DNA from: a virus
Taxonomy: Duplodnaviria > Caudoviricetes
DNA length: 64,000 nucleotides
Reading direction: 5' to 3' (one strand)
Virus record (IMG/VR): IMGVR_UViG_3300032218_003260
Part shown: piece by piece, positions 3,148 through 20,725 of the stretch
Numbering within the stretch: the first letter of the stretch is position 1
Layout of the letters: the number at the start of each line of letters is the position of its first letter
Position numbers and translations under genes: made by a program
The notes under the pieces: generated by a model
What the model saw: the letters and a program-made list of their open reading frames with translations, nothing else
The model's database searches: none
What the model was told of the DNA's origin: nothing

Positions 3148-5409
3148 TCACAGATCAGCAAGATCGCTTACACGACCAGACTGAAGCGGCTCAACGCCGC
3201 CGGCCGGAGCTTGGTTAGGCTGCGGTGATTGCGGACCGTAGTAGAACGGGTTTCGTACGTTAGGCACGTACGACCGAGCTGTTTGCGCTGCGTTTGTCAC
3301 GCCGCGGCGAACGTCATTGGCTGTATTTACAACAGTGTTACGAGCTGTACCGTAGGCTGTGCCGGCCGCATCGCCAATTGCAGATCCGGCGTCATGCACG
3401 CCTTGACCAATGGCGCGCGGTACGGCCATAGCTGCCTGTCCGGCCTGCTGTAAACCTGCGCCGACGCGGTTGGCCGTGTCCGAACCAAACTGCTGCGCAG
3501 AGCTAATATAAGGATCAACGGCAGGCGCAGTGGCACGATATGCGCCGTAAGTAGCTCCAGCCGCGATCGGCATAGCGACAGCCGTGCGCGCAGCGTTCAT
3601 AGCTGTGCTGCCCGGAACCTGTGTACCCGCCCAACGCGCTACGCTACCGGCGCCGCGGGCAACCTGACCAGCGCCGTACATGCCGGCACCAGTAGCCGCG
3701 CGAATACCGCCGCCGACTGCGTTACCTACGCCGCCGCGCATCATTTGTTGTGCGCCGCCGCTGGCCATTCGCGCGCCGCGGTTTACAGCCGCATTACCAA
3801 GCTCGCCAGCCGCGGCGCCGGTAGCCCGACTTACAGCGCGTGCGCCGCCAGCCACAGCACGACCACCGCCGCGGGCCATCGCGCCGAGACCTTTGGCGCC
3901 AGCGCCGATTAAACCACTCACGAGCCCAGCAGCTTCTTTTTCGCCGTGCGACTGCTGCGCGTTCGCTGCGTCTGTCGGTACGGGGTTGGGCGCCGAGCGT
4001 TGCTTGTCGTCAATAATCTTGTTACTGCCGCGCGCACTCGGCGTGCAGTTCATCTCAGTCTTGCCGCGGGCCGCACTAGAGCGCGCTTTTTTCTCTTTCT
4101 TGTCTTTCTTCTTGCTGCCGACCGGGCGGCACGAGTCGTTGCTGTAGGGCTTCTTACCCGGCACCGGCTCATAACCAGTCCAACACCGACCCGCTGCTTT
4201 ACCAAACTCCAGCGCCGAGCCTTGCTTCATACCGTTCGTGCTCGCGTTCTGCAGCTGCGGCATAAGCTGTTCAATGATATTTCTATTGTGGGTCAGAAAG
4301 TCATACATCTGCCGACCCTGTCCGCTGCTCATGTTGGGATCGCGCCCCATCAGCATCGTCGTGCCGAACTCCGGGCTCAACTGACTCAGCGCGTTGATCT
4401 GATCCATCGGGTTCCCGCCACCACCGCCAAGCATGCTGTACAACCCGTTGGCGCCCTGACCGACCATGCGCCGAGCACCGTCGCCGAACATACCGGCACC
4501 AGCGGCACCAAGACCAGCGGCGCCCAGACCCAGTGCGCCCATGCCGGCACCCAAACCCGTGTTCCCGCGGCCGCCCATAAACGCACCAGCCAGCGCCAGC
4601 GGAACACCAGCGCCGATCGCGTAGCGGGCTTCGATCGGCAGGCTGTTCCACATACCCGTCAGCCCGCCGTTGTTGGGATTCGCCTCAGCGTGCTGCGCCA
4701 TGGACATCTGCGTATTCATCTGCTGCGCATCGACGTTTTCAGACGTCGGTTCACTGCCGAGGCCCATGGCTTTTCCGGCATAGTGCATGCCGGCCGCGCC
4801 GGTCCCAGCGCCTACCGCTAGATTCAACGGATTGCGCGCGTTCGTCATGGCCGAAGAACCGCCGCCCATCCACTCAGGAAGATTCTTCGCCGCAGCCTGT
4901 GTCCGACCAACCGTCTGATCACCAAAACGCTGGCCGGCAGCGCGCGGATCTAAACCACGCACGCCTTGCACCATGTCGTCGGCTTTGTTAAGACCACGCC
5001 GCATGACATTCATCGTGCCGCGGCCAAGGCCGCCGACGGCATCGACCGCTTGGCCCGCCAGTCGGCCGGGTGTGCCGTGATACAAAGAAGCGGCCTGACC
5101 TTGCGCGGCACGGGCAGCAGCATCGAGACGGCTGGGTCCTGTCGGTTTCGCCGTAAGCGGCACTGCTTTGTAACGATCCTTGAGCGGAATGGTCAGCGGA
5201 TCAACAACGTTTTGTTGCATGCCGCGCTGATAGCCGCGCGTGGCGCTCGTGCCGCGATTGACGAGCTGTTTTCCGCCGCGCACCGCATCATCGGCAAGAC
5301 CTTTGACGGCTTTAGTGCCGGCGCCGATAATGCCGCTCAGTAATTTATCGCGCGCGCCGGCTTCTTTTTCAAGCGCAGCGATGTGTTGACCAAACTCATA
5401 TGCGTTCAT
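3148..5409 (-). CDS. Gly/Ala-rich modular protein, putative internal virion protein (YEFG/KxA family)
   Basis: 753 aa. Starts MNAYEFGQHIAALEKEAG; internal ALEFGKAAG, CWTGYEPVPGKKPYSNDSC and EKEAAGLVSG; Gly-rich hydrophobic segments. Confidence 0.6.
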   Translation of the reverse strand: MNAYEFGQHIAALEKEAGARDKLLSGIIGAGTKAVKGLADDAVRGGKQLVNRGTSATRGYQRGMQQNVVDPLTIPLKDRYKAVPLTAKPTGPSRLDAAARAAQGQAASLYHGTPGRLAGQAVDAVGGLGRGTMNVMRRGLNKADDMVQGVRGLDPRAAGQRFGDQTVGRTQAAAKNLPEWMGGGSSAMTNARNPLNLAVGAGTGAAGMHYAGKAMGLGSEPTSENVDAQQMNTQMSMAQHAEANPNNGGLTGMWNSLPIEARYAIGAGVPLALAGAFMGGRGNTGLGAGMGALGLGAAGLGAAGAGMFGDGARRMVGQGANGLYSMLGGGGGNPMDQINALSQLSPEFGTTMLMGRDPNMSSGQGRQMYDFLTHNRNIIEQLMPQLQNASTNGMKQGSALEFGKAAGRCWTGYEPVPGKKPYSNDSCRPVGSKKKDKKEKKARSSAARGKTEMNCTPSARGSNKIIDDKQRSAPNPVPTDAANAQQSHGEKEAAGLVSGLIGAGAKGLGAMARGGGRAVAGGARAVSRATGAAAGELGNAAVNRGARMASGGAQQMMRGGVGNAVGGGIRAATGAGMYGAGQVARGAGSVARWAGTQVPGSTAMNAARTAVAMPIAAGATYGAYRATAPAVDPYISSAQQFGSDTANRVGAGLQQAGQAAMAVPRAIGQGVHDAGSAIGDAAGTAYGTARNTVVNTANDVRRGVTNAAQTARSYVPNVRNPFYYGPQSPQPNQAPAGGVEPLQSGRVSDLADL

Positions 5410-5557
5410 GAGTGTTCTCTTCCTGTTTTGTTATCTGTGGCGGCTCTGGGTAATTACACCGGCCGCCTTCGCAACATGTTTCCAAAATAATGCGACAAAA
5501 TGGACACACCAGTTTGCCACGAATTTCAATTCCGGGGCTTTCGCATTGCGGGCACAT
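5396..5557 (-). CDS. small Cys-rich Zn-ribbon protein (53 aa)
   Basis: Not in the ORF track. MCPQCESPGIEIRGKLVCPFCRIILETCCEGGRC...; the ATG overlaps the upstream TAA (TAATG coupling). Confidence 0.7.
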   Translation of the reverse strand: MCPQCESPGIEIRGKLVCPFCRIILETCCEGGRCNYPEPPQITKQEENTHERI

Positions 5558-6189
5558 TACCACTCAAACTCCACCGGTTTGCGCGTCTTGTAGCTGAAGT
5601 CAACGTCGAGCGGCGACTGAAACCGCACACTAGGTAGAGGTAATTTAGGCGCTACCGCAGCTGTCCCGCCAAGTAAACCAGCAGCGGCAAGTGTCGGGAC
5701 GCCAAGTGGCGCGTCACCTACCGCGCGCACGCCCTTACCAACAGCCTGCAAGCCTTCGCCGGCTAAGTTCACTGCATGACCGGCGCCGCGCAAGCCCGAG
5801 CCGCCGAGTCGCATGCCGTGGCCAAGTACGCCGCGGATATCTCGGGTGGTTCGTGTGCTGCCGCTGCCAATATTGTTAATCATGCTCTTGCCGGTCGTCT
5901 GCATGCCGCGGCCCGTGCCTAACAGCAGTCCGCCAAGACCCGTTGAGTTGCCAAGGCTCGTACCGTCTTTTGGACTGAACGTGGGCCGGGCTTTTGTACC
6001 AATAATCTCGCCAGCGCCCTGTAAACCGCGGCCAAAACCTTTAACAATACTTTGCGAGCCGCGATTGATCGTCTGCGCGCCGCGGCCAATACCAGACGCC
6101 GCGTTAGCAAGCCGCGCGACAATCTTTTCAAACCCGGCGCCCTGTTTTTCTAGCTGGCCGACGTTGTATCCAAACTCATATGCGTTCAT
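5557..6189 (-). CDS. Gly-rich protein, YEFG/KxA family
   Basis: Starts MNAYEFGYNVGQLEKQGAG. Confidence 0.65.
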   Translation of the reverse strand: MNAYEFGYNVGQLEKQGAGFEKIVARLANAASGIGRGAQTINRGSQSIVKGFGRGLQGAGEIIGTKARPTFSPKDGTSLGNSTGLGGLLLGTGRGMQTTGKSMINNIGSGSTRTTRDIRGVLGHGMRLGGSGLRGAGHAVNLAGEGLQAVGKGVRAVGDAPLGVPTLAAAGLLGGTAAVAPKLPLPSVRFQSPLDVDFSYKTRKPVEFEW

Positions 6190-6207
6190 GTTTACTGCTC
6201 CTCGATA

Positions 6208-6894
6208 TTAAAAGCTGGCCAGCGGTGTGTTGGCCTGACCGCCACCATAGATGCCGGGACCGCTGGGCTGGAACTGTTGTGCCGGTTGTCCGCCGCCAAC
6301 GCCCATCATGCCTAAACCTGCACTCCCCACGGCGCCCGCAATCGGTAACGCCAACGGAGCCGTTTGCATCGGATTCTTAATGGCAGCGTTGTACATCTTG
6401 CCAACCCTGCCCGGATTTTGAATTGTCGGCAGCGCCTTCTGCAAGACACCGCTGGCAGCCCGATTCGCGCCACTGACAGCCGCCGTGCCCTTGGTTAGAA
6501 ATTGCTGCGAACCGCGAGTGAGCGCTTTGCCAGTATTCGTAAAGCCGGCGCGGGCGAGCTGTTTGCCGCCGCCAGCAATCGCGCGGCCAACGCCCTTGGC
6601 AGCAAAGCCCCAGCCGGGAATGAAGCTCAGCGCGCCGCTCAACCCAGACATACCAGCGTCCATAAATCGGCCGTTGTACAGGTGACGCGAGACGTCGTTA
6701 ATCGCTGTGGGCACGCCGGTAAACGGGTTCGAGTACAGCGCCGTGTCAGCAATCATGCCGCGCTGCGTTGGGTCGCCTAACGGGTTGATTTGACCCATTG
6801 CTGACCCTGTACCAAGTACTGCGTCACCAAGGGCGTTCTGCGCCCGCTTTTCTGTTGCCAGCCCGACACTGTAGCCAAATTCATATGGACGCAT
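6208..6894 (-). CDS. Gly-rich protein, YEFG/KxA family
   Basis: ATG 6894 gives MRPYEFGYSVGLATEKRAQ, matching the paralogous N-termini; the ORF track start (6951) is probably too long. Confidence 0.65.
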   Translation of the reverse strand: MRPYEFGYSVGLATEKRAQNALGDAVLGTGSAMGQINPLGDPTQRGMIADTALYSNPFTGVPTAINDVSRHLYNGRFMDAGMSGLSGALSFIPGWGFAAKGVGRAIAGGGKQLARAGFTNTGKALTRGSQQFLTKGTAAVSGANRAASGVLQKALPTIQNPGRVGKMYNAAIKNPMQTAPLALPIAGAVGSAGLGMMGVGGGQPAQQFQPSGPGIYGGGQANTPLASF

Positions 6895-6920
6895 AGATAA
6901 CTCCAGCGGCGAACAGCAAT

Positions 6921-7460: not shown

Positions 7461-7475
7461 GACTGCAATCGCCGT

Positions 7476-8232: not shown

Positions 8233-8586
8233 TCACATGACAGTAGACGCGTGTGTGAACTTCTTCTCGTAGTGCGAATAGATCTCAGCAAACGCCACGC
8301 CCCACGCAGCGTCGTGGGCGAGCTTGTTAAACGCAGCGTCGTCCACCGCGGTATCCAGTCGGTGATTCCATGCCCGTGCGTGCGCCCACTCATGGATCAA
8401 AACGTCCATAGCGCGAGATTCATCCAGACTTTTGTCAATCTGAATGTGGAACTTCTTGCCCTGTTTCCAGCAGCGGCCCTCTAGTTTAGATAGCTTTACC
8501 CGCCGCGCACTGACGGGAAAAGCCGCGGGACACTCGTCTTTGAGCATCCGCAGGAGGGCTTGGTAATACTTAAAACGAGCCGCCAT
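8233..8586 (-). CDS. zincin-like metallopeptidase (HExxH)
   Basis: VLIHEWAHA plus a downstream H(DAAW); ATG 8586 has an AGGAGG RBS. Confidence 0.65.
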   Translation of the reverse strand: MAARFKYYQALLRMLKDECPAAFPVSARRVKLSKLEGRCWKQGKKFHIQIDKSLDESRAMDVLIHEWAHARAWNHRLDTAVDDAAFNKLAHDAAWGVAFAEIYSHYEKKFTHASTVM

Positions 8587-8637
8587 GCTCAGTCCTCCTG
8601 AAGGGCGTCCTTGCCGCAACAGGGTGATTATACTTGA

Positions 8638-9182
8638 GCTGGCGGAGTTTGGCGCCGCAGTTTATTTGCGACTCATAAAAAATCTGCAGCGTCGTCGGAA
8701 GTTTCAGAGATCGGGGCTTTCGCCCAAAGTTGTGATTTTTGGCGGGGCGGGCGGGCGGGCAGGAGCTGTAGGTCGGGCGGGAACTTGCGGTTTAGGCGGG
8801 AGAGGCGCAGCCGACATTCCAGCACGCCCTAAACCTCCGCGAGAAGCGCCCAATGAATTAAATCGTTGGGTTTGCGCTTGAGCTGCCGTCACCCCTGCCT
8901 GTTGCGATTGCGGAACCGGAACATTCTGGCCCGTAGGCGTCTGTACCCGAACACCATTTACATACTGCCCAGCCGGAAGATTCGCCTTTAAACGCGCATT
9001 CCGAATTCGGGCCTCAATTCCCTCTCGGTCTAACCCCTCGTCATCAATATTGGGGTAAGCATCGAGGGCTTGTTTTATTAACCGACCAAACTCAAATGGA
9101 TTCACGATAATTCCTATGTTATTTTAGTCCAAACATGTTCGTGGTTCTGCCGTATGTCTGTTGCGACGCTGGCGGAGTTTGG
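8638..9182. repeat. exact 15-bp intergenic direct repeat GCTGGCGGAGTTTGG at 8638-8652 and 9168-9182
   Basis: Both copies are intergenic, each is followed by TTTATT 8-9 nt later, and together they flank ORF 8704-9105. Confidence 0.7.
8704..9105 (-). CDS. Pro-rich protein, YEFG/KxA family
   Basis: Starts MNPFEFGRLIKQALD. Confidence 0.6.
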   Translation of the reverse strand: MNPFEFGRLIKQALDAYPNIDDEGLDREGIEARIRNARLKANLPAGQYVNGVRVQTPTGQNVPVPQSQQAGVTAAQAQTQRFNSLGASRGGLGRAGMSAAPLPPKPQVPARPTAPARPPAPPKITTLGESPDL

Positions 9183-9197: not shown

Positions 9198-10757
9198 CTA
9201 GAAAAAATCCGCGGCATCGTCGGATGTTACAGACTTCTTCGGATACGGTGGCGCTGCAGAAACGGTTGGCGCGGCCGCAGATGGCGCAGGAACTGAAGTC
9301 GGGGCGGGTTGCGGCATTAATTTACCCTGCTGAAAAGTGCCGCTCATTGTTGTCGCGCCCGGATTTGCTGCGCGAAGCTGTTGCGCCTGTTGCGCCATAC
9401 CCTGCTGACGATTTGCCATTTCCTGCCCCTTGCCTTTACCAAACACACGCGAATAAGCCGCCGGATCAACAGCATTCTTCTGCAGCTGCGCTAGCACAGC
9501 TGCGGCGCTTTTTTTAACTTCTTCGTCGCCCGAGTCTTCCGACTTTTCTTCGGACTTTTCTTCTTTTTCGTCGCTTTCGGGCTTTTTCTTTTTCTTGCCG
9601 ATACTGGAGCCGATGTTACTACCCAGATGCGCACCGGCACCCAAACCAGCAGCGCCGCCCGCTAACAGGCCGATACCGGCTCCGGGGCCGCCACCCAGCG
9701 CACCACCAGCGAGCGCGCCCATGATCCCGCCACCAGCGCCACCAGCCAGCCCGCCGATGCCTCCGCCAGCCACGCCGCCCAGCGTAGAGAGCAGCGACGA
9801 TTGTTTTTGCGCGCCGTAACGCGGCACATCGGGCGTGCCGGTTAACACGCGCATCAGCGGCGCCGTCATCTGTTGAAACGGCGATAATCCGTCTCGATCA
9901 AGACCGCCCACAATTCGTTTGAGGAGAAGAGTTTTGTTTACAGGAGCCACGGGTTTTGCGGCCGGTGTTTTAAGCGATCGGTAGGCTTCGCTCGCGGCCA
10001 GCGCACCACCGGCGCCAGCAGTCCCGGCAACAGCCGGATAAAACACGTCATCACTGGCTAAAGTTTTTGTCGCCTTGCCCAGACCCTTTTGAAGGCTTTT
10101 CAGAATAGATGAGCCTGCGCCAGCTTCTTTATTTTCCCACGACGGCTTGCCAATAGCAGCGCTGGCGCCAGCATAGCCCAGTCCAGCGCCGCCTACAGCG
10201 CCTGTTGTACCGCCGCGCACAATCGCATTGCGCAGATACGCGTCAGAGTATGGCGAAAGCTGTCCCGGGCTACGAATCGGGACTTTCTTGCCGCCGCGTG
10301 ACATCGTCCGGCCGCCGCGCTGTACAAACCGCTTGAGTGCGTCGGCTAATTGCGCCGCGCTCGGACCAAAGAGTGTTTTGCCGATACGAGGACTTGCCGC
10401 TGCGAGTGCAAGAGCCCCCAGCGCTCCGCCTATGCCGCCGCCAATCATGCCGGCACCCGTGCCAGTGCCTTTGACAGCGCCGCGGCCCAGTCCTTCCATA
10501 CGGTGCCCAGATGGCGACGTAACCGCGCCCAGACCAGCACCGACACCGGCTGTGATCGGCAGCGTCACAAACGCCTGTTTGCCCATGGTCTTACCAACCT
10601 GCATACCAAATTGCTGGGGCGTCACGCTCATTCGATCACCTGTAGCTTGCATATGGTTTTGAATCTTGCGCGACGCCACATGCTGCATGATCTTTTCAAA
10701 CAGCTTGCGCCGCGACAGCGCTAACTCAGTTAGTTTATTTACTGGAATCGGCGGCAT
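9198..10757 (-). CDS. Gly-rich modular protein with glycine-zipper segments, KxA family
   Basis: 519 aa; PQQFG...GKQAF, NKEAG, QKQSS, VKKSAA, QKNAV; GxxxG repeats. Confidence 0.6.
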   Translation of the reverse strand: MPPIPVNKLTELALSRRKLFEKIMQHVASRKIQNHMQATGDRMSVTPQQFGMQVGKTMGKQAFVTLPITAGVGAGLGAVTSPSGHRMEGLGRGAVKGTGTGAGMIGGGIGGALGALALAAASPRIGKTLFGPSAAQLADALKRFVQRGGRTMSRGGKKVPIRSPGQLSPYSDAYLRNAIVRGGTTGAVGGAGLGYAGASAAIGKPSWENKEAGAGSSILKSLQKGLGKATKTLASDDVFYPAVAGTAGAGGALAASEAYRSLKTPAAKPVAPVNKTLLLKRIVGGLDRDGLSPFQQMTAPLMRVLTGTPDVPRYGAQKQSSLLSTLGGVAGGGIGGLAGGAGGGIMGALAGGALGGGPGAGIGLLAGGAAGLGAGAHLGSNIGSSIGKKKKKPESDEKEEKSEEKSEDSGDEEVKKSAAAVLAQLQKNAVDPAAYSRVFGKGKGQEMANRQQGMAQQAQQLRAANPGATTMSGTFQQGKLMPQPAPTSVPAPSAAAPTVSAAPPYPKKSVTSDDAADFF

Positions 10758-13290
10758 TTTCGTCGTCCAGAATGCTGGCGCTGGGTTGTGGCTTGGCGTC
10801 TGGATATTTTAACAGCCGGCGCTTCTTCTTTGAAAGCGGCTTATTGGGCGGTGTTAATTTGAGCGTTTGAAACACGGCGCTCGCTTTTTCCTGCACTTCT
10901 TTGTCTTCTGTTAATTCTCCGCGCCGCCGCTTGAGATACTTTTGTAACTCTTGCTCCTGATAGGCTTGAAGCATGGTTTTTACTTTGTCAGCCCGAGTGC
11001 GCGAGACTAGCTTTGCTGGGTCAATCGCCCAGTGCTGTAGCGCCCAGCCACGTCTTGGCGTGGGATTAGACATAAACGGGCCGCCATGTCTGGCTTTGAA
11101 GCTTGCCCAGCGCTTGATCTGTCGCGTGTCTTCGTCGGGAATGCGGCGGCCTGAGTTATAGTTCTGGTACCACTCCAGCCAGCCCTTGGGATCATGCTCT
11201 GTCACCCATTCTGGCTTCCATTCGCCCAAGCTAGCTAACCGCGGGCCTTCTTTCTCATAGAGCGATTTGTACACACCCATGCGATGTAACTGGCCCGGTG
11301 TAAAATCAGGTTGGAAATCAGGCAGCTCGGCGGCGGCTCGTTTCAAAAGCGCAGACACAACGCACGTCACCTGACCCGGTTCCGCTTCGGTGACGTGTTT
11401 GTGACAGGAAACCGGAAAAACATCCCCGCGTTGTGCCTGCGCTATTTTGTCTTGCACGTACTTCTGCATCGGCAATTCTTCCAGCGTCGTATGCTCGTAC
11501 GGGTTGCCTAACAGATCAAGTTGTTTGATGGCAGCACGCAGTTTGTAGATTGCCGCATTACCTGCAGGTTCACGTCCCGGTTTCCATTTGGGTTGGGTGC
11601 CAAATTTGTGCTTTTCAACTAAATCGTCGTCAGACCACGTCTTGCCTGTGTCGACGTGAAACCGGCCCATAAGTTTAGCCGTGTCTAAGTCTGGCGTAAC
11701 ATAACTGCCAGCGGCCAATGTTTGTAAATCAGCATTGGGCGAACCATGGTAGAACGTGCGTTGTTCCGCCACTTTCTGCTTGCGATATTTGTCGCCCTCG
11801 TCTTGCAAAATCTTGCGGAAGATCTCGTTGAGCTGTTCTTTCTCGGCCGTGAGGTGTTCAAGTACTTCGTCGCCAGTACGCTCGCGCTGATATCCCATGA
11901 GCTTGCCGATGATGCTCGGATCTTGGCTGGCGCTTAGATATCTTTGGACTTGAACGTTCTTGAGTTCTTCCGGTAAGTCTCTGTGCGAGTCAAAGCGCAG
12001 ACCACGACCGCGAGCTTGCTGGCTGCGCGACTCATGCCAGTGCGGGTCTAGAAGCTGGATGAGACTCGTACCCTTGGTGGACAAGCCTTCAGCGCCAGCC
12101 GGGCCGATGAGTAACGCCCGGAGCTTGCCGGTGTTGTATGCGTCCACGGCAGCTTGGCGCGCCTTTGTGCTAACGCCGCCGTGGAAAAACGCATGCGGGA
12201 TCTTGGCTTTCTCTAGGCCAGCAGCGTAGGGGGCCAAGCCAGAGTCAATAAAGTTGGAATAGATGATGGCTTTCTTGCGTTTGTCTTCGCCCAGCGTCTT
12301 TTGCAGGTTTTGAAACGCCGTCTGTAACTTTGCGCTCTGCTGAAACGCCTTGGCTGGATCTTTGTCAGCGCGAAAAGGCTGTGTACTGAGACTTACTTGA
12401 CGTAAACCAGTGAGGAAGCTGTTTAACTTCGCCAGCTCGTCTTTGGATAGCGGGAACTCTTGGTCCAACTTCCATAAGAACCCCGGCGGAATCTTCGTGC
12501 GAATAGCTTTTTGAATCTTGTCCTGCGCGGGAGACAGGGGCACACGCACGGTTTCTTCGTTAACATTCACGCCTTCAGGAGTCTTGCTCGGCTGGTAATC
12601 CACCTTGCCCTGTAGCAAGCTTCGCAATTCTTTCTCATTCTTCACCACGGGTTTCACACCGGGCTTCACGCCGCGCAGCCAGCCAAATAAGCCCGGTCGC
12701 ACAGTCTTATAGTCGATGTAGCGCTTCTCGAATTCCTCGGGCGTGATCGATTTGTTGTTCAGCATCGACAACAAGTTCGCCAAGTCCGTGGGCGAATTTG
12801 TGATCGGCGAGCCTGTGAGCAGCAGCAGGCGTTTGGCTTGAGCAGCAGCTTCCGCGGCGCCAGCAGAACTCGCGCTCCCCGGATTACGCAGCCTATGCGC
12901 CTCGTCCATGATGAGCGTTTTGGGCGGCGTTTGGAACTTCTTGCCCAAAGCTAATCCCGTGTAGCTCATGATCTCGGGGTTAGAATTCCGCGTGAACTTT
13001 TTGATCTCTTTATCGAAGTTACCGCGCAAGCTCGCCGGAACCACCACGCCATAGTCTTCGTTGTCTTGCTCTTTGGCCGCTTCAGCAGCAGCCAGAGACG
13101 AGAGTGATTTCCCGGAACCCAGCCCGTGATACACAAGCAGTCTGGGATCTGGGCCGGCAATACGGTCGGCAATCCGCTGCTGATGCTCTTGCAGCTGGAT
13201 TTCGGGAAGTAGTTCTGCGACTTTATGCCACAGGCCAGCCGGAAGCGCGGATGTCTTCGGCGCAATGTCGTCGTCGAGAATGCTGTTCAT
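10735..13290 (-). CDS. SNF2-like SF2 helicase fused to C-terminal ART-like and unknown domains
   Basis: YHGLGSGKS; IMDEAH; LTGSP; IIYSNF; GAEGLS; QARGRGLR; then FYHGS...YVTPDLDTA and a W-rich C-terminal domain. Confidence 0.85.
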   Translation of the reverse strand: MNSILDDDIAPKTSALPAGLWHKVAELLPEIQLQEHQQRIADRIAGPDPRLLVYHGLGSGKSLSSLAAAEAAKEQDNEDYGVVVPASLRGNFDKEIKKFTRNSNPEIMSYTGLALGKKFQTPPKTLIMDEAHRLRNPGSASSAGAAEAAAQAKRLLLLTGSPITNSPTDLANLLSMLNNKSITPEEFEKRYIDYKTVRPGLFGWLRGVKPGVKPVVKNEKELRSLLQGKVDYQPSKTPEGVNVNEETVRVPLSPAQDKIQKAIRTKIPPGFLWKLDQEFPLSKDELAKLNSFLTGLRQVSLSTQPFRADKDPAKAFQQSAKLQTAFQNLQKTLGEDKRKKAIIYSNFIDSGLAPYAAGLEKAKIPHAFFHGGVSTKARQAAVDAYNTGKLRALLIGPAGAEGLSTKGTSLIQLLDPHWHESRSQQARGRGLRFDSHRDLPEELKNVQVQRYLSASQDPSIIGKLMGYQRERTGDEVLEHLTAEKEQLNEIFRKILQDEGDKYRKQKVAEQRTFYHGSPNADLQTLAAGSYVTPDLDTAKLMGRFHVDTGKTWSDDDLVEKHKFGTQPKWKPGREPAGNAAIYKLRAAIKQLDLLGNPYEHTTLEELPMQKYVQDKIAQAQRGDVFPVSCHKHVTEAEPGQVTCVVSALLKRAAAELPDFQPDFTPGQLHRMGVYKSLYEKEGPRLASLGEWKPEWVTEHDPKGWLEWYQNYNSGRRIPDEDTRQIKRWASFKARHGGPFMSNPTPRRGWALQHWAIDPAKLVSRTRADKVKTMLQAYQEQELQKYLKRRRGELTEDKEVQEKASAVFQTLKLTPPNKPLSKKKRRLLKYPDAKPQPSASILDDENAADSSK

Positions 13291-13302: not shown

Positions 13303-14151
13303 CTATTTTGACTCATTTATATCTAAATGGGTCGCCGGCTCTGGACCCGTGGTAGCCTGCGCGGCAAGCGCTAGCTCGTGCTGCTTGATCTGCGATTCTA
13401 CCCAATCCCGGTACATACTCACACGGGTAAAAGCACTGTCGTCGCCATACGTGCCGTCCGGTTTACCGTCGTCGTGGGCCAGAAACGAATTAATTCCGGC
13501 TAATTCGTTGCCGATAAACATTCCGCCGCCAGAATCACCGGGGGCAATCATGAACTCTAGCGGAAACCGGCCGTCTTTGCGGGGGGCGCAGGCGACCACC
13601 GAGAGAAACGCCGCCGAAAGCTTATTCTGTCCGGCGCGGCGTTGGTTGTCTGATTTGGTGGCGCCCGTTGTAAAGTTTCCAGTTGAACCCCAGCCCGCGA
13701 TGGTGACAGCCTGCCCAAGTTCATCTGCTTTTGTGTACAGCGGCACGTAGAAGTTCAGCTTGAAATCATCGTCAACATAACAGAGCGCAATGTCGTGCAG
13801 GCCAACTTTGTTTTCGTTGTAGTCCTTGTGCTGCACCTTGTAGGCCACGTGGTGTTTCTTCTCGCCAACATAAATCACGTCGTCTTTGGAGCCGTTAATA
13901 ACATGCGCCGCGGTCAACGCCCAGTGCGGTCTAATAATGACCGCTGATGCCAGTTGTTCGTGGTTCTTTTCGCACTTCTTGCAGTCGACGTTATTGGTAA
14001 TTCGGACTACAAACGGAAATTGCTTGCCAAATTCGACGTACTTGTCGTCGGGAGTGCTGGGGTCGATCGTGCCGGCCATCGCGGCACGCGATACAGCCAA
14101 GAGAATAATCACGAATCGTAGTAGGCGGGCAAATAGTTCTTGCACGTTCAT
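13303..14151 (-). CDS. S1 (chymotrypsin-fold) serine protease with signal peptide
   Basis: LTAAH; HDIAL; GDSGGG; hydrophobic N-terminus. Confidence 0.9.
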   Translation of the reverse strand: MNVQELFARLLRFVIILLAVSRAAMAGTIDPSTPDDKYVEFGKQFPFVVRITNNVDCKKCEKNHEQLASAVIIRPHWALTAAHVINGSKDDVIYVGEKKHHVAYKVQHKDYNENKVGLHDIALCYVDDDFKLNFYVPLYTKADELGQAVTIAGWGSTGNFTTGATKSDNQRRAGQNKLSAAFLSVVACAPRKDGRFPLEFMIAPGDSGGGMFIGNELAGINSFLAHDDGKPDGTYGDDSAFTRVSMYRDWVESQIKQHELALAAQATTGPEPATHLDINESK

Positions 14152-14189: not shown

Positions 14190-16205
14190 TCATGCTTGTG
14201 GTTGTTGAGGTTTCAAGAGTGTCATGGCCTTGGCAAACATGTGCGGATCGAGCTTGGGTTGCGGCGGAAGCTTGGGCGAGCGCAACAAGCCTTGACCTAA
14301 ACCAGTCAGGCCATAACCAGCAGCGCCCATCAGGCCCATGGCGCCAATCCCTGCGCCTACGCGGCCCCGGAAGCCTTTGGTGAGGTCTTTCAGCGCTTGG
14401 CCTTTGTGCGTGACTAACACAGGCTCGAAGATGTCGCTGAGCGCTACGCGATTGGGCAGCCACGCATTGGGATCGCCCTTGAACTTGCCGCCAACGAGAC
14501 GTTCATACAAGCTCGCCGGGCCGCCACCACAGTGCGTGCCGTAGCAATTGGTGCGGCCAAACATGCGGCGAAATGTATTTAATCCAGCAACTTCGCCCAC
14601 CGCTGTTTGACCAGCAGCAACACCAGCGTAGGGATCGACACCCATGCGCTTGGCGGCCTGTAAAAACTCTGCCTCGTTGTTAATCTTAGCGCGATACGGC
14701 TCTTTAACGCGCATCCATAACGTCGGCTTGTGCCCGATTGGCTCTTTTTTGCCGCGATAATACCCCCGCGGATTCTGACTCGAACCTTCAGTGACCGTGT
14801 GCTTGTAAACCGTGTCGGCGCCATGTGGCACTAATCTCTGCGGGCGCTCTTCCAGCTGGCGCTCAACAGTTTTGATCCAGCCGTCGTCATGTAACCCAGT
14901 GTTATCTCGAAAGCCGTCCAGCCAGTCACGCACAGCGTCGCGCGCACCGCCCAAGCCTTTTTGCCACCAGCCTTTGATTGCATCTTTGGGTAAGTCGGTG
15001 CCGTGCGCAGCGATGTAATCAGCCGGCGTGCGCCCAACATTCGTGGCGCTCATGCCGCCGTGTAACAAGCTGGGCACAAATGTCTCAAACTGCTTTGGTT
15101 TAAATAACTTTGATTTGGGCAGCGCTGCGGGATTACCACCGGCAGCTTCGAGAAGCGCTTCAACTGTGCGCTTCTGCGTCGTGGTTTGTGGGCCACGCGC
15201 TTCTATACTGCGTGCAAGATTATCCCAGCGCTCTGGCGCTGTACGCCGAAGATCTTGCGCAATCTGCTTGAACTTGGGATTCTTCGCGGCCATCTCGTCG
15301 AAGCGTTTGGCCAGTGCTTCTTGTCGGTCTGCGCTGCCTGTTAATTGTGTTAATTCACGATCAAAGTTCTGCGCTTTTGTATCTGGCCCGTCAAAGAAAC
15401 CGCCCTCAAACGTCGGTGACCATGTTGCACGCGTTTTGCCGCTGGGGCTAGTTTTTAATTCACCTGTCTGTGTCTTACCTGCATCTTCTGAGACACGAGC
15501 AAGAAAACGCTTGAAGCCTTTGACAGCTTTTGTTTTGGCGCCGACTGCTTTGTTTACTTCAGCGAGATCGGGCCGCGGGACTTTGGGCGGCGTGGCTGAT
15601 TTCCCGGCACTGACAGCCGCGTCATATGTATCCCATGCTTTCTGCCGTGCTTGAAGCTGCGCCAATTGTTTCGTCCGGCCACGCAGGCGTTCTTTTGCGT
15701 TACCGTAGGACTCCGTGCCCTGCATGTTCTCTTTGGCATCAGCAGCGACAGACTTACGCCACGCTTTTGGATCGCGCATCTGGGGTGAGTACAGCTCGCC
15801 GCGGTCGTTCATGAGGTACGGCAGTGGCGCGCCCAACTCACCCTTGGGTACGCCAGTCACGCTCCAGTGTGGGCGCACATATGGGCCGGCTACTTGGCCG
15901 TGTGCGCCCGGGCCGCCTGACGCAGCATGAGACCCGCGCACCAATGTGTTTGTGAATAAATCTCCGCCGCCTTGTAAGCCAGACAGGCCAAAGTCGCCCG
16001 GCTGAACTTCCTGCATGACCTTTTTAAGATCTACAAGGCCATTGGCGAGCGTAGCATCAGGAGCAGCTTCGAGAATCTTGCGGTACTGCGGGTACTCGCG
16101 AAAGATGTACTCCAACAGACTGACACCGGGCGGAAGAGCAGCGATACCGGCGCCAACTGGGCGGTAATCAAACGGCGCTTTTGACGAAGAATCTTGTACG
16201 GGCAT
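14190..16205 (-). CDS. hypothetical protein (671 aa) with C-terminal Gly-rich hydrophobic segment
   Basis: Long ORF in the putative virion-protein cluster; no confident family. Confidence 0.55.
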   Translation of the reverse strand: MPVQDSSSKAPFDYRPVGAGIAALPPGVSLLEYIFREYPQYRKILEAAPDATLANGLVDLKKVMQEVQPGDFGLSGLQGGGDLFTNTLVRGSHAASGGPGAHGQVAGPYVRPHWSVTGVPKGELGAPLPYLMNDRGELYSPQMRDPKAWRKSVAADAKENMQGTESYGNAKERLRGRTKQLAQLQARQKAWDTYDAAVSAGKSATPPKVPRPDLAEVNKAVGAKTKAVKGFKRFLARVSEDAGKTQTGELKTSPSGKTRATWSPTFEGGFFDGPDTKAQNFDRELTQLTGSADRQEALAKRFDEMAAKNPKFKQIAQDLRRTAPERWDNLARSIEARGPQTTTQKRTVEALLEAAGGNPAALPKSKLFKPKQFETFVPSLLHGGMSATNVGRTPADYIAAHGTDLPKDAIKGWWQKGLGGARDAVRDWLDGFRDNTGLHDDGWIKTVERQLEERPQRLVPHGADTVYKHTVTEGSSQNPRGYYRGKKEPIGHKPTLWMRVKEPYRAKINNEAEFLQAAKRMGVDPYAGVAAGQTAVGEVAGLNTFRRMFGRTNCYGTHCGGGPASLYERLVGGKFKGDPNAWLPNRVALSDIFEPVLVTHKGQALKDLTKGFRGRVGAGIGAMGLMGAAGYGLTGLGQGLLRSPKLPPQPKLDPHMFAKAMTLLKPQQPQA

Positions 16206-16880: not shown

Positions 16881-16909
16881 GATATACCCGGTTTTGGCCG
16901 TTTATTTAG
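16881..16909 (-). promoter_or_regulatory. phage promoter motif CTAAAT-N17-YATAT, copy 1
   Basis: CTAAAT aaacggccaaaaccggg TATATC; one of six copies with identical 17-nt spacing. Confidence 0.75.
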
Positions 16910-16912
16910 CTA

Positions 16913-19900
16913 TCAGCGGTTAGCGGTATACGCGACGCCCGCACCACCCGCTGCAAGCCCGCCGACCCCGGCTGCGCCATAGCCCACGCGCTTAGCCATT
17001 GGGACCATGGGCGATGCCACGGTCATGCCGTAGCGAATCGCGGGGCCGTACACCATCTTGCTCAGCGTCGGATTCACGCCGGATTCCTGCGGCTTGTACA
17101 CCATGCTGTGATCGGCTGCGTTCATACCTTGTAGCCGCCGGGGCGATAACTGAAACTCAACAGGTGTGCCTTTGAGCGTCCCTTTGATGTTATGCCCATG
17201 ATAGCCGGGGCGCATTAACATCTTGGACCCAGTGATTTGCACACCAGCGTCTGTCAGTTGTTTTGTTAACGAATCAACAGCAGGTTGACCGTAGCCTTGG
17301 CTGGACGAAAGCCGAAAGCCAAGTAAGTCGTTGGTGACTTGATCTGTTCCGTGGCCTGCGATGCTTCCGGGTGTCTTCACGCGGCCGGCATATGTCTGGA
17401 AACCCTGCGGCTTGAACGACGACAAGAACTCGTTGCCAGCCTGCAGGGCTTGATTGCGCTCGGCGTGCAGGATGCCTTCGGGGACAGAATTACCCAGCGT
17501 CGTCATGGGCCCGCGGAACGACTGGCGCGCAGCTGTCATGCCTTTCGACAGCCCTTTGAAACCCAGCCTGCGTCCAAGCCCCATAGCGCCAGAAACTAAC
17601 CCAGCCGACTTTTCTTTCGCGTCGGGCCAGCCGGGTTTGAGCTGGTAGTCATACACAGGCTCGCCGGCCAACAGCTGCTGCTTGGCCAATGTGGGCACAG
17701 CGCCAGCGATCGAACCGTCTGGTTGGGGCTGTAACCGATAGCGTTCTTTCAGCCACTGTTTATGATATTCAGGCGTTTCTTTGGCCAGCCGATCAAACTG
17801 CTGCGTGGCGATAAACGTGTTGATATCATCCGGCGTCATCGTAATCGGGTGCAGCTTTTCGCGCTGTTTTTTCAGGGGCGTGATGCTGTAATGCACACCC
17901 TCTTGTAGCGGCGTTTTATTTTCGCGCTCTGCTAGGTGTTTGCGCAGCCGGTCAAGCACGGCCTGTTGTTTTTTTTTATTACCGGGTAACACAGCGCGGG
18001 CTTCACCAGTGCGGGCGTTGTTATATGCAATCCCGGGATGGTCTAACTCGTCCAAAATAGTATGCAAAGACTTGCGCAGGTTTACGCCTTGTACGTCGCC
18101 GTCAAAGCGATACACGCCGGCTTTTTTATCTGTCACTTGTCTGGCCGCGGCGTCAGCTTTAAACCCGCCCAGCGTCTTCTTGCCGTAGTGCGCGAGCATG
18201 GGCGCAGAAGACGCCAGCATGTATGTGGGCAGGCCAATAAACGCCGATCGGCCGCCCTTGAGCTTCATCTGGCGCATGAGCTTGGCGCCCCGACGAGACG
18301 CATCAAACTCAGACGCTAACATCGGCACTGCGCCGACTGTACCCGCAATCGCCGAGTTCCGAGAGTTAGTCTCGTTGTTTGAAAGCAGCGCGCCGGCCGT
18401 ACCTAATCCCAGCGCCGGCCGACCGATTTGATTACCGCGCATGAGCCATTTGCCGCCCATGTGGTGCCCGATCTCGTGCGCTAACACGCCGGGGTTACTC
18501 ATGCGCGGACTATGGCCAATCGTGGGTTTTGATATCCCCATACCCGGATTTGCCGGTGTATAAAACGCGGGGGTGTTGCGCACACTATCAGCCGCTGAAC
18601 GGCGCATTCTGTACTTGATGTTATTCATGAGATCGCCAAGCCAGTTGCCCGTTGTTTTAGGTGCTATCTTTGGGTCAATCTTGCTGGCAACGTTCAAACT
18701 ATCTGTCACATCTACGCCCTGCCCCTTTGCGTAGTCACTGAGTTGTTGCCACGCTTGCGATGTTTCAAGCGTCGGCACAGCGTTCATTTCTGGGCGCGCA
18801 ACACGGTTCATGTACGCAGTTAATGGCACGCCAATCGCAGCATTTGTCGCCGGCATGCCACCGAGGTACCAGCCCATCGAGTGCCCTAAACCGGGCTTAG
18901 CGGGTTCTTTTTTTTTTGCTTCGATTGCGCTTTTTTTACCAAAACGCGCAGCAAAATCTGCGGGCGATACCGGGCGAATCGAAGGCGGCGCGGCTGTTGT
19001 TGCTGGGGCGGCCGGCGGTGTGGCCGGCGCTGCAGTGGGCGATACAGGGCGCTGCATAACTGGCGAGGGAGCCGGACGAGCTGCCGGGGCTGGGCTTGGT
19101 CGCGGAACAGCAGTTGGAGCCGGCTGCGCAACTGGCGTGGGTCTAGCTTGCTGCGAAACAGGAGCGGGAACCGGACGCGCTGCCGGCCGAGGTGCTGACG
19201 TTACCGCTTGCCCCGCTCCGGTGGCGCGTTGCGTGTCTATTCGCTGGCGCATCAGCTGATAATTTTGCAATTTTTGCCATTCTGGTACGCCGTCGTTCAC
19301 GTTTACAACGTTTTTCATGTAACTACTGAGGTCGGCGCTCGTGGGCCGTGCAGGCATTTTGAACGGTGTGCGCGCAGCTGCCGCAATTGGTTTTTTCGCA
19401 ACTCCGCTGACCGCTTTACCAGCCATGCGACCAATCGAGCTGAGTAAACCGGCCATCTTCTCCCCGCCTACAGAATTGGCTGTCCCAAACGCGGCGTTCC
19501 CTGTGATATCACCCGTCGAAGACAACGCGCCGTATGAATTAATAGGATTGGCGTTGGGAGACGAACCGCCGCCAACAGGGGGTAGTTGGCCAGACGGAGC
19601 AGGCGAGCCCGTGTTTGCTGGCTGGGCGGCGGGAGCCTGTGGTTGGCCTTGTGGCGCCTGTGCCTGCATACCCATAGGGAGCGGCGTACCCATCGCCGGC
19701 ATGGCATATCGCTTAATTCCGGCGTTTGCAGGCATCCGGGCAGCCTCTCGGGCCTCCATTTCAGCCCTTTCATTCTCCATCGCCTGCATAATGGGCTGCG
19801 ACAAAACAGCAGAAAGCTTCGCCATTAACGTGTTTACACCATAATTTGGCTTTGTTTCCGAGTTACATCTTTCGCCCTTGGTTTTAACGACCTTGGGTGG

Positions 19901-20725
19901 ATTTTCGCCTGCAACTGTGGGCTTATCACTGGCCGGCTGCTCGATATAGACCTCTTTGGTGTCCGCTTTCTTGGATAATTTCCTGTAAATATCGAGGGCT
20001 ACAGAGTTTACAGCCGATTGTTTGTAAGTTGTCATGGGAGGTTTATTTGCAAAGGCTGCGTTAATGGGGGATTGGCTTGCGGTACCGGTGACATGGGGCA
20101 AAAACCCGACAACTCCACCAACACCAAGGTTCATGACACCGTTTGCGACTCCGATACCCTTCTCTAATGTCTCGGTAGGGAGTTCGCCATGTTGTTTTAC
20201 ATAGCGCTGCGTCTGATTCTGAAGCTGCTGGACGTCTTTATACGCTCTGGTGGCTTTATTGACGGTACTTTTATTGACGTTGGCGAAAGTCTTGGGGAGT
20301 TTTGAGTTTACAAGCTTATCGGAGAGTTCTAGTTGGCGCGCAGAGAGGACAGCAGCGTTGGGGAGGCGCTTGAGCAGTCTGTATGAGCGCATGGGGTTAA
20401 AAAACAGCACGCTTTCCCTTGCGGCATTCTGAAACAACTGCTGCAACATCGGCGAGCCAACACGTTTTGATAGCATTCCGGCAGCTGCAAGGCCGGCGGT
20501 TGTGCCCAGAGTGCTTAATCCAGCGGCAGCGGCAGTGTCTCGGGCTGCGGCACCGGGAGAAAAGTCGGCTTGCTTGGCCTCTGTGTCAGGTTCTTTGTCT
20601 TTTTTACTGTCAGACGCGTACATGGGGAGTTTCTTTTTGATCGGATACTCGTGCGCCCAGCGTTTGGCAAGCTCTGGATGCTCGGCCCACAGAAACCTAC
20701 GCTGCTTTTCTGACTTAAACGGCAT
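16913..20725 (-). CDS. 1270-aa multidomain polyprotein-like protein: Zn-peptidase, acylphosphatase-like and RelA/SpoT synthetase-like domains
   Basis: N-terminus MPFKSEKQRRFLWAEHP; LAHEIGH...EFDASRRG; GDVQGVNLR; GRVKTPGSI...DLLGFR...GYHGHN...EFQL...HSMVYK; KxA/KxS at the domain junctions. Confidence 0.75.
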   Translation of the reverse strand: MPFKSEKQRRFLWAEHPELAKRWAHEYPIKKKLPMYASDSKKDKEPDTEAKQADFSPGAAARDTAAAAGLSTLGTTAGLAAAGMLSKRVGSPMLQQLFQNAARESVLFFNPMRSYRLLKRLPNAAVLSARQLELSDKLVNSKLPKTFANVNKSTVNKATRAYKDVQQLQNQTQRYVKQHGELPTETLEKGIGVANGVMNLGVGGVVGFLPHVTGTASQSPINAAFANKPPMTTYKQSAVNSVALDIYRKLSKKADTKEVYIEQPASDKPTVAGENPPKVVKTKGERCNSETKPNYGVNTLMAKLSAVLSQPIMQAMENERAEMEAREAARMPANAGIKRYAMPAMGTPLPMGMQAQAPQGQPQAPAAQPANTGSPAPSGQLPPVGGGSSPNANPINSYGALSSTGDITGNAAFGTANSVGGEKMAGLLSSIGRMAGKAVSGVAKKPIAAAARTPFKMPARPTSADLSSYMKNVVNVNDGVPEWQKLQNYQLMRQRIDTQRATGAGQAVTSAPRPAARPVPAPVSQQARPTPVAQPAPTAVPRPSPAPAARPAPSPVMQRPVSPTAAPATPPAAPATTAAPPSIRPVSPADFAARFGKKSAIEAKKKEPAKPGLGHSMGWYLGGMPATNAAIGVPLTAYMNRVARPEMNAVPTLETSQAWQQLSDYAKGQGVDVTDSLNVASKIDPKIAPKTTGNWLGDLMNNIKYRMRRSAADSVRNTPAFYTPANPGMGISKPTIGHSPRMSNPGVLAHEIGHHMGGKWLMRGNQIGRPALGLGTAGALLSNNETNSRNSAIAGTVGAVPMLASEFDASRRGAKLMRQMKLKGGRSAFIGLPTYMLASSAPMLAHYGKKTLGGFKADAAARQVTDKKAGVYRFDGDVQGVNLRKSLHTILDELDHPGIAYNNARTGEARAVLPGNKKKQQAVLDRLRKHLAERENKTPLQEGVHYSITPLKKQREKLHPITMTPDDINTFIATQQFDRLAKETPEYHKQWLKERYRLQPQPDGSIAGAVPTLAKQQLLAGEPVYDYQLKPGWPDAKEKSAGLVSGAMGLGRRLGFKGLSKGMTAARQSFRGPMTTLGNSVPEGILHAERNQALQAGNEFLSSFKPQGFQTYAGRVKTPGSIAGHGTDQVTNDLLGFRLSSSQGYGQPAVDSLTKQLTDAGVQITGSKMLMRPGYHGHNIKGTLKGTPVEFQLSPRRLQGMNAADHSMVYKPQESGVNPTLSKMVYGPAIRYGMTVASPMVPMAKRVGYGAAGVGGLAAGGAGVAYTANR

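Follow-up and report, generated by a model that had tools for sequence, protein, structure and literature searches.

A YEFG leader and recurrent K-x-A elements in a gene cluster of an uncultured phage clade: a candidate head-targeting and cleavage signal

Four minus-strand genes in the DNA analyzed here (the window, 64,000 nucleotides) begin with M-x-[AP]-[YF]-E-F-G followed by K-x-A or K-x-G (starts at 5409, 6189, 6894 and 9105), and K-x-A recurs inside their larger neighbors and in head proteins of the same phage clade. The leader and K-x-A most likely form a signal for head targeting and cleavage, comparable to that of phage T4, because K-x-A marks module boundaries and is located in the capsid and scaffold-like proteins. 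We give even chances to the more defined proposal of a propeptide resembling the T4 capsid-targeting sequence (CTS), combined with a processing site for packaged proteins. The window comes from a clade of contractile-tailed phages of ~200 kb that is abundant and uncultured. Its features are listed in Table 1.

Table 1. Genes and sequence elements of the cluster (window coordinates)
Feature	Position	Strand	Description	Basis
p753	3148..5409	-	Gly/Ala-rich, N-terminal leader	ORF and translation
p753 leader, residues 1-17	5359..5409	-	MNAYEFG...LEKEA	
p753 internal leader-like copy	4189..4215	-	ALEFGKAAG, directly before the CW-x-GYEPVPG module	
p753 junction element, residue 490	3883..3942	-	EKEA, then AGLVSGLIGAG	
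p210	5557..6189	-	Leader, helical Gly-rich body, hydrophobic segment, invariant C-terminus ending VEFEW	
p210 leader	6139..6189	-	MNAYEFG...LEKQG	
p228	6208..6894	-	Leader-bearing paralogue	
p228 leader	6841..6894	-	MRPYEFG...ATEKRA	
SprT-like	8233..8619	-	Small zinc peptidase candidate (HEWAH)	Pfam SprT-like, E 3e-4, below curated cut-off
p133	8704..9105	-	Accessory leader-bearing protein; GTG start, MNPFEFGRLIKQA	
p519	9198..10757	-	Gly-zipper-rich protein	
p851	10735..13290	-	SNF2-type helicase, residues 28-499	Pfam SNF2/Helicase_C
p282	13303..14151	-	Trypsin-fold serine protease, signal-peptide-like N-terminus	Pfam Trypsin, E 3e-20
p671	14190..16205	-	No known family; C-terminal Gly-rich hydrophobic segment	
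p1270	16913..20725	-	Modular giant protein	

The leader comprises ~17 residues with the consensus M-x-[AP]-[YF]-E-F-G-x(3-7)-[E]-K-x-A and is carried by 3-5 adjacent genes per genome. All four N-termini noted in a sequence-only reading of the window are present on the minus strand, and a GGAG/AGGA-type ribosome-binding site 6-9 nt upstream of each start indicates that they are real N-termini. The true start of p228 is the ATG at 6894, internal to the ORF listed to 6951, with GGAG 8 nt upstream. When all six frames of the window were scanned, [YFW][EQD]FG was matched six times. Four matches are residues 4-7 of the leader genes; the other two fall in a 13-codon frame and in a plus-strand frame of 113 codons (30512) whose coding status is doubtful. 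The leader core is in no further ORF of at least 60 codons. G002, a relative scanned over its full 205 kb genome (~87% nucleotide identity), has the N-terminal motif on the three adjacent orthologous genes alone, p133 being absent from this genome. Searching IMG/VR with a degenerate DNA pattern of the leader gave 25 stretches, 24 from this phage clade (many ~200 kb contigs among its members) and one random-looking. The leader is thus confined to these genes. For K-x-A alone, the G002 proteome shows no enrichment (299 observed vs 317 shuffled). Enrichment of N-terminal EK.[AS] is marginal (9 vs 4.9 expected, P=0.06).

Conservation of the leader was followed in 15 p210 relatives, with identity down to 44%. 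F6, G7, E14 and K15 are invariant in an alignment of 10 of these relatives, and mean column identity in p210 falls from 0.79 (residues 1-17) to 0.62 (residues 18-150) and rises to 0.83 over the C-terminal 60. The third codon positions of the leader vary synonymously among orthologues, so selection on it acts at the protein level. Glu precedes Lys in the leaders of p753, p210 and p228, with I-K in p133 and G-K in the corresponding motif of p519. Among p753 orthologues the leader is kept in L004 and varies in L003 (MNNAHQFG...MEKD), and a leaderless p753-like protein in G004 starts with MTEKEA. The p133 counterpart in L033 starts MTMNAFQFG...IKQA, and p228 has orthologues in L001, L003, L004, L017, L030 and G004.

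The leader-bearing proteins had been taken as otherwise unrelated. Judging from their sequences, p753, p210 and p228 are paralogues: p210 is homologous to p753 over ~60 residues (E 9e-7), and p228 has a displaced segment in common with p753, with weak significance (E 0.4). A broad family of unrelated cargo is thus not what we find, the leader being confined to 3-5 paralogous proteins per genome. The ESM Atlas model of p210 is helical and hairpin-like, with no named family. p851, p671 and p1270 have no N-terminal leader; p671, which is present only in closer relatives, has no junction motif either.

Copies of the motif also lie within the proteins. The internal copies reported previously are confirmed in p753 (ALEFGKAAG), p519 (TPQQFG...GKQAF) and p1270 (ADFAARFGKKSA, 18926-18961), and K-x-A/S does coincide with module changes in the 753-, 519-, 851- and 1270-aa proteins, where relatives swap, delete or split modules. 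The form that recurs at the boundaries of interchangeable modules in these four proteins is [E/Q/N/K]-K-x-[A/S]. At least three modules appear to be fused in p753, whose relatives stop, or break up into separate genes, where it has its internal motifs. For the L004 orthologue, divergence sets in exactly at the EKEA junction (the alignment stops at residue 494), and in L040 the CW-x-GYEPVPG module is a separate 278-aa gene with MNPYEFG...EKTA-RCW five residues into the listed ORF. In p851, the helicase is joined to extra modules via QKVA (residues 505-508, window 11767-11778); relatives lack the module past residue 505-512, have another in its place or have it permuted. p519 has two junction elements, starting at 10133 and 9809, and relatives are without the module between NKEA and QKQS. 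In p1270 the junction elements are EKMA (from 19462) and EKSA (from 17614). Nine relatives (714-1339 aa) have modules swapped at these sites, with four different continuations after GGEK[MLV]A; in one of them, P0286, EKMA runs straight into the residues found after KKSA in the window protein. Overall, a motif is no more than 8 residues away for 7 of 32 alignment break points, vs 2.1 expected (P=0.003).

The K-x-A at junctions is often followed by an amphipathic G-L-L-S-G-I-G segment. This element, G-L-[LV]-S-G-[IL]-G, reaches 10-15 residues past K-x-A, has six copies in the window and none elsewhere, and is under protein-level selection. Its conservation directly after K-x-A suggests that the K-x-A element is more than a bare protease site; a conserved helix in this position is unusual for a simple cleavage site and counts against the head-cleavage reading. 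It is possible, though rather unlikely, that there is no proteolysis and that the leader with its K-x-A/amphipathic helix is a reusable structural or docking module, for example binding a common partner or a membrane. The module would then stand at each domain start because the domains descend from separate leader-bearing genes. Consistent with this, the paralogy of p753, p210 and p228 means that their shared N-termini could be inherited, and in p210 conservation is even higher at the C-terminus than in the leader. Likewise, the leader-like motif of p519 (residues 44-62, window 10572-10628) is preceded by a conserved 43-residue extension, so the motif is not always N-terminal. A docking module, however, does not account for K-x-A being invariant in the capsid and conserved in a scaffold-like protein, nor for the start of the leaderless variant just before EKEA. 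Furthermore, the precise excision of a module between two K-x-A sites suggests a boundary function.

The head proteins of the clade favor the head-targeting and cleavage reading. The major capsid protein has K-x-A ~30 residues from its start: in 42 distinct capsid N-termini, [EQ...]-K-x-A-[IVL]-DAVNDF is kept, with K and A invariant. The N-terminal 28 residues are themselves fairly conserved, so the capsid K-x-A could be structural. Three diverged genomes share A-[AS]-E-K-x-A at positions 27-32 of the scaffold-like protein and F-E-K-S-A at positions 16-20 of a 242-aa protein; K-x-A-like sites are also found in other head-module proteins.

A prohead protease had been expected elsewhere in the genome, and a candidate is present in the clade's head module. 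Its gene lies outside the window, and the fold comparison was made on the protein of close relatives. The AF2 model of this 485-aa protein (pLDDT 86.6) gave T4 gp21 (5JBL) as top Foldseek match (prob 0.99); VIA aligned it to 5JBL with Z 12.6 and rmsd 3.1 over 151/164 residues, and herpes proteases rank next. On the strength of this model, the clade encodes a prohead protease of the T4 gp21/herpes assemblin fold, which Pfam Peptidase_S77 fails to detect. The family is large, with 2597 representative clusters at 50% identity and >1000 clusters at 90% identity.

Other candidate peptidases are encoded within the cluster. It is quite unlikely, in our estimation, that the sites are cut by a zinc metallopeptidase, either the HExxH module of p1270 or the SprT-like protein, rather than by the head protease, before packaging or after injection. 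The architecture of p851 (SNF2 helicase with add-ons) and p1270 (an invariant HEIGHH, with HExxH invariant in the alignment of relatives, among variable modules) fits that of phage polyvalent proteins, whose units the MPTase domain is proposed to release (PMC5512222). In addition, the internal leader-like motif of p1270 precedes its HExxH module, and the SprT-like gene is kept inside the cluster in all relatives examined (orthologues in L003, L004, L033, L035 and L040). Fold searches with the HExxH module (AF2 pLDDT 65) nevertheless gave only low-scoring matches: the best Foldseek metallopeptidase rows (MATCAP) reached a prob of only 0.23-0.30, and a wide VIA search returned generic helical matches with Z below 8. 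The module was not found in G004 or G005, which both have leaders, the SprT-like match is below the curated Pfam cut-off, and the occurrence of the motif in capsid and scaffold-like proteins favors the head protease. The trypsin-fold p282 is probably not the processing enzyme; its S1 position 189, aligned to kallikrein-7, is Met.

Salmonella phage Arash (OQ632216) is the nearest cultured relative, although a distant one. Its head-module order matches that of the clade (RNAP beta', helicase, gp218 and further structural proteins, gp222, gp223, gp226), where gp222 is protease-like, gp223 scaffold-like and gp226 the capsid protein; identity to the clade is 27% for the capsid, 35% for the protease and 34% for the helicase. 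The Arash head proteins have [LM]-x-K-x-A at positions matching those of the clade. Residues 28-499 of p851 align with the orthologous Arash gp217 (34% identity, E 1e-76), for which 1148 spectra were reported in purified particles; the RNA polymerase subunits gave 3516 and 1210 (PMC10585845). By analogy with these particles, the p851 helicase and the RNA polymerase may be in the virion. BLAST of p753, p210, p671 and p1270 found no homologues in a phage collection including Arash, and the YEFG leader was not seen in the Arash genes inspected.

These comparisons bear on whether the leader proteins are virion cargo at all. We consider it very unlikely that they are instead membrane-associated proteins made during infection, with the leader serving targeting or regulation in the cell. 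p210, p228, p671 and p1270 do have Gly-rich hydrophobic segments near their C-termini, and the leader genes are located ~30 kb from the head module among non-structural genes (methyltransferase, ferritin-like, HNH, 2OG oxygenase), next to PhoH. A search for homology to known virion proteins found none. Conversely, the leader is hydrophilic and does not resemble a signal peptide, Arash gp221 and gp224, Gly-zipper proteins with EKSA-GL motifs, were detected in purified particles, and the motif is common to the capsid and scaffold-like proteins.

We propose that the leader acts like the T4 CTS (MKTYQEFIAE) and would recruit the Gly-rich proteins to the prohead as it assembles. Cleavage of the K-x-A element by the head protease would then take off the leader and part the fused modules from one another. 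In mature form, the Gly-zipper/amphipathic proteins, the helicase with its add-on domains and the HExxH module would remain inside the head and be delivered to the host along with the DNA. The scissile bond would follow Glu, Lys or Ala. It could be E|K, as in the T4 and phiKZ enzymes, but the fit to their Glu-P1 specificity is poor because the Glu is not invariant, being replaced by Q, N, K, I or V at several junctions and in the capsid protein. Herpes assemblins cut maturation sites after Ala, and K-x-A| would be comparable. The assemblin has the same fold as gp21 and the clade protease, and its small P1 residue would match a cut after K-x-A; this is an analogy of specificity only, the substrates having no sequence relationship.

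The T4 system is among the closest known parallels. Its CTS, carried by IPI-III and Alt and removed by gp21, is likewise a short N-terminal leader on a few adjacent, otherwise divergent genes; an aromatic-acidic-aromatic core is found in both (YQEF in T4; YEF here, and QEFIA in the relative L040), and the clade, like T4, encodes a gp21-fold protease. T4 internal proteins undergo a single cut next to the ~10-aa CTS (PMC8442874). In contrast, the leader here has ~17 residues instead of 10 and ends in E-K-x-A with an invariant Lys rather than in I-A-E, further copies of the motif lie at module junctions inside the proteins, and the proteins are large and Gly-rich instead of small and basic. The suggested T4-like system with a Lys-containing motif is partly supported: the conserved leader, the boundary sites, the head-protein K-x-A, the gp21-fold protease and the Arash virion detections speak for it, but p851, p671 and p1270 carry no leader and K-x-A is not enriched genome-wide.

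Near-identical N-termini carrying the cleavage motif are found on paralogous head proteins of SPN3US, phiKZ and 201phi2-1, whose propeptides are cut by the gp245/gp175 protease at A/S/G-x-E. The SPN3US paralogues gp53 and gp54 have identical 15-residue N-termini containing the cleavage motif, and phages of this type package ejection proteins and a virion RNA polymerase (PMC5694885). Unlike these phages, the clade belongs to another lineage, has a Lys-containing motif, a small 308-aa capsid protein and a separate scaffold-like protein, and its cargo has no sequence homology to theirs. The polyvalent proteins of phages and conjugative elements, according to Iyer et al. (2017), are large packaged proteins that combine an SNF2 ATPase, an HExxH peptidase and effectors in shuffled order. 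This variable multidomain architecture is present in p851 and p1270, whereas the recurrent [E/Q]-K-x-A linker that marks boundaries and is shared with head proteins sets our proteins apart; term searches of that article returned no linker consensus.

A more far-reaching proposal, which we put forward tentatively as possible but less than probable, is that the assemblin-fold head protease of a very large, mostly uncultured phage group recognizes a Lys-containing [hydrophobic]-x-K-x-A instead of the Glu sites of T4 and phiKZ. The site would double as a universal linker, with effector modules spliced in at any K-x-A and released inside the head, and with the YEFG leader as a portable tag for targeting to the head.

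The head-targeting and cleavage reading is testable now, since Arash shares the K-x-A placement in head proteins and has virion LC-MS data. If confirmed, it would define the targeting tag and the grammar of processing in a jumbo-phage clade that is widespread and uncultured, explain the evolution of the cargo locus through module swapping, and provide a rule for predicting which proteins the clade's phages inject. Like the T4 CTS, a portable tag could also serve to carry foreign proteins into capsids.

Four proteins of the window (p753, p210, p228 and p133, named by their length in amino acids) begin as the sequence-only reading had described. They share a leader of about 17 residues, M-x-[AP]-[YF]-E-F-G-x(3-7)-[E]-K-x-A. 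A six-frame scan of the window for [YFW][EQD]FG gives 6 matches, 4 of them at residues 4-7 of these proteins. The other two lie in a 13-codon frame and in a 113-codon plus-strand frame that shows no evidence of coding. Each leader gene has a ribosome-binding site 6-9 nt before its start, which confirms all four starts; the ATG at 6894, internal to the listed ORF, and the GTG at 9105 are among them.

Table. Genes of the proteins named by length in the window
Protein	Coordinates	Strand
p753	3148-5409	minus
p210	5557-6189	minus
p228	6208-6894	minus
p133	8704-9105	minus
p519	9198-10757	minus
p851	10735-13290	minus
p282	13303-14151	minus
p671	14190-16205	minus
p1270	16913-20725	minus

The window comes from an uncultured jumbo phage. 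It aligns with 31.4-97.1 kb of the complete relative G002 at about 87% nucleotide identity, and p671 matches two contigs in IMG/VR (199.8 and 205.0 kb), one of which is G002, with 91-96% identity. Genome-wide counts were made on G002; G004 and G005 were the more distant genomes compared. Among 50,697 phage records, no match was found for the whole region by megablast or for p671, p210, p1270 and p753 by tblastn. Pfam, PHROGs and NCBIfam gave no match to p753, p210, p228, p133 or p671 and a single weak one to p519, a tape-measure PHROG. p1270 has a weak Acylphosphatase Pfam match and a match to a PHROG of unknown function. PDB sequence searches with p1270, p671 and the protease discussed below returned nothing meaningful, and in the ESM Atlas p210 finds only generic helical look-alikes, all scoring <0.8. 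The remainder of the window encodes collagen-like tail fibres and baseplate-type proteins; baseplate- and tail-like genes are also present in G002, judged from its unannotated ORF list. A 406-aa protein adjoining the cargo cluster (22394-23614) matches the AAT / NAAA-beta Ntn-hydrolase families (E 1e-7), an uncommon enzyme in phages that is kept in the related locus L004.

The leader is specific to this gene neighborhood. Across the whole of G002, only the three orthologous neighbor genes carry the motif at the N-terminus; p133 has no counterpart there. A scan of IMG/VR with the back-translated pattern gave 25 stretches, of which 24 come from the clade and encode p210-like or p753-like proteins, showing the leader to be spread clade-wide; one looks random. 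There are fifteen relatives of p210, with identity down to 44%, and an alignment of ten shows F6, G7, E14 and K15 to be invariant. Mean column identity is 0.79 in the leader, 0.62 in residues 18-150 and 0.83 in the C-terminal 60 residues. Since leader codons vary synonymously, the constraint acts on the peptide, and conservation at the RNA level is ruled out. More distant members carry variants (MNELHAFG...LEKEA, MNNAHQFG...MEKD and MTPQEFIAV...SEKTAG), the last of which resembles the T4 sequence MKTYQEFIAE. A leader-like KYVEFGKQF follows a signal-like segment in p282 and is kept in relatives; its likeness to the leader may be coincidence.

The leader proteins had been considered otherwise unrelated, but p210 can be aligned with p753 over some 60 residues (E 9e-7), and residues 24-70 of p753 have a weakly significant match (E 0.4) in a displaced segment of p228. 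The three proteins are paralogues. The motif need not be terminal, since p519 has a 43-residue extension before it that is kept in distant relatives. The last ~55 residues of p210 (5557-5730) are better conserved than the leader; they contain the hydrophobic segment GVPTLAAAGLLGG and close with an invariant tail whose last residues are PVEFEW. One alternative is that the leader proteins are membrane proteins outside the virion. Acidic-plus-hydrophobic C-terminal tails are also seen in p519 (...DDAADFF), p753 (...SDLADL) and p133 (...ESPDL); they recall partner-binding C-terminal tails.

The proposal that K-x-A marks module boundaries in p753, p519, p851 and p1270 was borne out, as relatives diverge, swap or omit modules there. 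When each of the four was compared with its relatives, 7/32 alignment break points fell <=8 residues from [ENQK]-K-x-[AS] (2.1 expected, P=0.003). The individual cases are more telling than this statistic. In the L004 orthologue of p753, divergence starts directly after EKEA (residue 494), and G004 has a p753-like protein without leader that begins MTEKEA. The internal ALEFGKAAG-RCW of p753 corresponds to a separate gene in the related locus L040, whose product has MNPYEFG...EKTA-RCW five residues into the listed ORF. The Cys-containing module after this internal copy, CW-x-GYEPVPG-x-K-x-Y-x(3)-SCRP (4120-4190, residues ~408-430), is that separate gene in L040 (4265-5101). Locus L003 lacks the p519 segment between NKEA and QKQS. 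In p851 the helicase ends at about residue 499, and relatives lack the add-on modules after QKVA, have different ones or carry them permuted. The 958-aa p851 homologue in G004 (around 11252) has a permuted domain order: the C-terminal module of p851 (residues 659-787) stands N-terminal of the helicase there.

Nine p1270 relatives (714-1339 aa) share GGEK[MLV]A followed by four different continuations; in one related protein, P0286, it is fused directly to the sequence found after KKSA in the window p1270. An internal leader-like AMEFGA...K-L-A precedes the HExxH module in 6/9 of them and AMQFG in a seventh; at this place the window protein has ADFAARFGKKSA. This module bears on a second alternative, in which HExxH or SprT-like peptidases would carry out the processing, as proposed for polyvalent proteins (PMC5512222), whose architecture p851 and p1270 fit. 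In fold searches with the HExxH module, the best metallopeptidase matches in Foldseek (MATCAP) reach prob 0.23-0.30. A further element, [E/N/Q]-K-x-[A/S] directly followed by G-L-[LV]-S-G-[IL]-G, has six copies in the window, two each in p753, p519 and p1270 and none elsewhere, and these differ in synonymous codons.

The head module of G002 is located at the contig ends, in the order capsid protein, small proteins, acidic 445-aa scaffold-like protein, 485-aa protein, more proteins, 806-aa protein and RNA polymerase genes. A capsid protein search finds Salmonella phage Arash (OQ632216; 27.5% identity), the nearest cultured relative, and three Vibrio phages. Arash has the same gene order: RNAP beta', helicase gp217, gp218 and further structural proteins, gp222, gp223 and capsid gp226. 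The 806-aa protein is taken to be the portal because its place corresponds to that of gp218, annotated merely as 'structural protein'.

The 485-aa protein of the head module in G002 is a prohead protease by its predicted fold, that of T4 gp21. The AF2 model has a pLDDT of 86.6. Foldseek ranks T4 gp21 (5JBL) first (prob 0.99), and VIA comparison with 5JBL gives Z 12.6 and rmsd 3.1 over 151/164 residues, with herpes proteases next. Pfam Peptidase_S77 has no match in G001 or G002. The clade protease shares 35% identity with Arash gp222 (E 1e-32). The N-terminal 270 residues of the 485-aa protein belong to a very large family, with 1186 clusters at 90% identity and, at 50%, 2597 representatives. 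Many homologues (P0136, P0141, P0144, P0199, P0285 and others) have 830-1297 aa and match in 2-3 separated stretches, suggesting large insertions, possibly inteins. The protease gene of a 120 kb relative (G007:C1:74639-76096) has one in-frame TAG; sequencing error, pseudogene and recoding are possible reasons.

The head proteins also carry the element. In G002, G004 and G005, residues 27-32 of the scaffold-like protein read A-[AS]-E-K-x-A, and F-E-K-S-A is kept at 16-20 of a 242-aa protein rich in Pro and Ala. Among 42 distinct capsid N-termini drawn from 80 loci, [E/Q, rarely I/V/A/T]-K-x-A stands just before [IVL]-DAVNDF, with K and A invariant. Junctions, leaders and head proteins therefore share one consensus. 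Arash head proteins have [LM]-x-K-x-A at matching positions, and its gp221 has EKSA-GL followed by a Gly-zipper.

Enrichment of K-x-A over background was not found in the G002 proteome (299 observed vs 317 after shuffling, z = -1.1). About twofold enrichment is seen there for EK.A (z = 4.4), which may come from helix composition, and at N-termini EK.[AS] is marginally enriched (P=0.06). A complex prediction pairing the protease domain with residues 1-45 of p210 scored 0.00 and counts neither for nor against. In a third alternative, the element would be a docking or amphipathic module that stays uncleaved.

Of the packaging and cleavage proposal, the motif and its boundary position are shown, along with its conservation, its occurrence in head proteins and the fold of the protease; the unrelatedness of the proteins and the K-x-A enrichment are not upheld. 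In the best-supported model, we infer that the leader would act as a CTS-like tag drawing the Gly-rich paralogues into the prohead, and so into the virion. The gp21-fold protease would then cleave at the K-x-A element, which would take off the leaders and split fused modules apart, and the products would leave with the DNA on ejection. Three scissile bonds are possible. A cut at E|K would fit the T4 and phiKZ enzymes (PMC5694885), but Glu is not invariant. A cut at K| would require a Lys-specific enzyme. Trypsin-like p282 was rejected for this role: its S1 residue 189 is Met and its N-terminus resembles a signal peptide. By analogy, the cut may instead be K-x-A|; assemblin-type cleavage likewise occurs after Ala.

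The cargo may include transcription machinery. G002 (L005, 10484-17747) encodes a multisubunit RNA polymerase made up of a 1467-aa beta/beta' fusion and a 626-aa beta' C-terminal part; these genes adjoin the putative portal gene. Residues 28-499 of p851 share 34% identity with Arash gp217 (E 1e-76). Arash virion LC-MS gave 3516 spectra for RNAP beta, 1210 for RNAP beta' and 1148 for helicase gp217, and also lists gp220-226, although its authors caution that particles may be contaminated by abundant infection proteins (PMC10585845). By analogy with these preparations, in which RNAP subunits had the highest counts, a virion RNAP is suggested in the clade. The system would work like T4 CTS/gp21 and giant-phage propeptides, differing in lineage, in its YEFG core and Lys-containing consensus, and in that this consensus doubles as leader end and inter-module linker.
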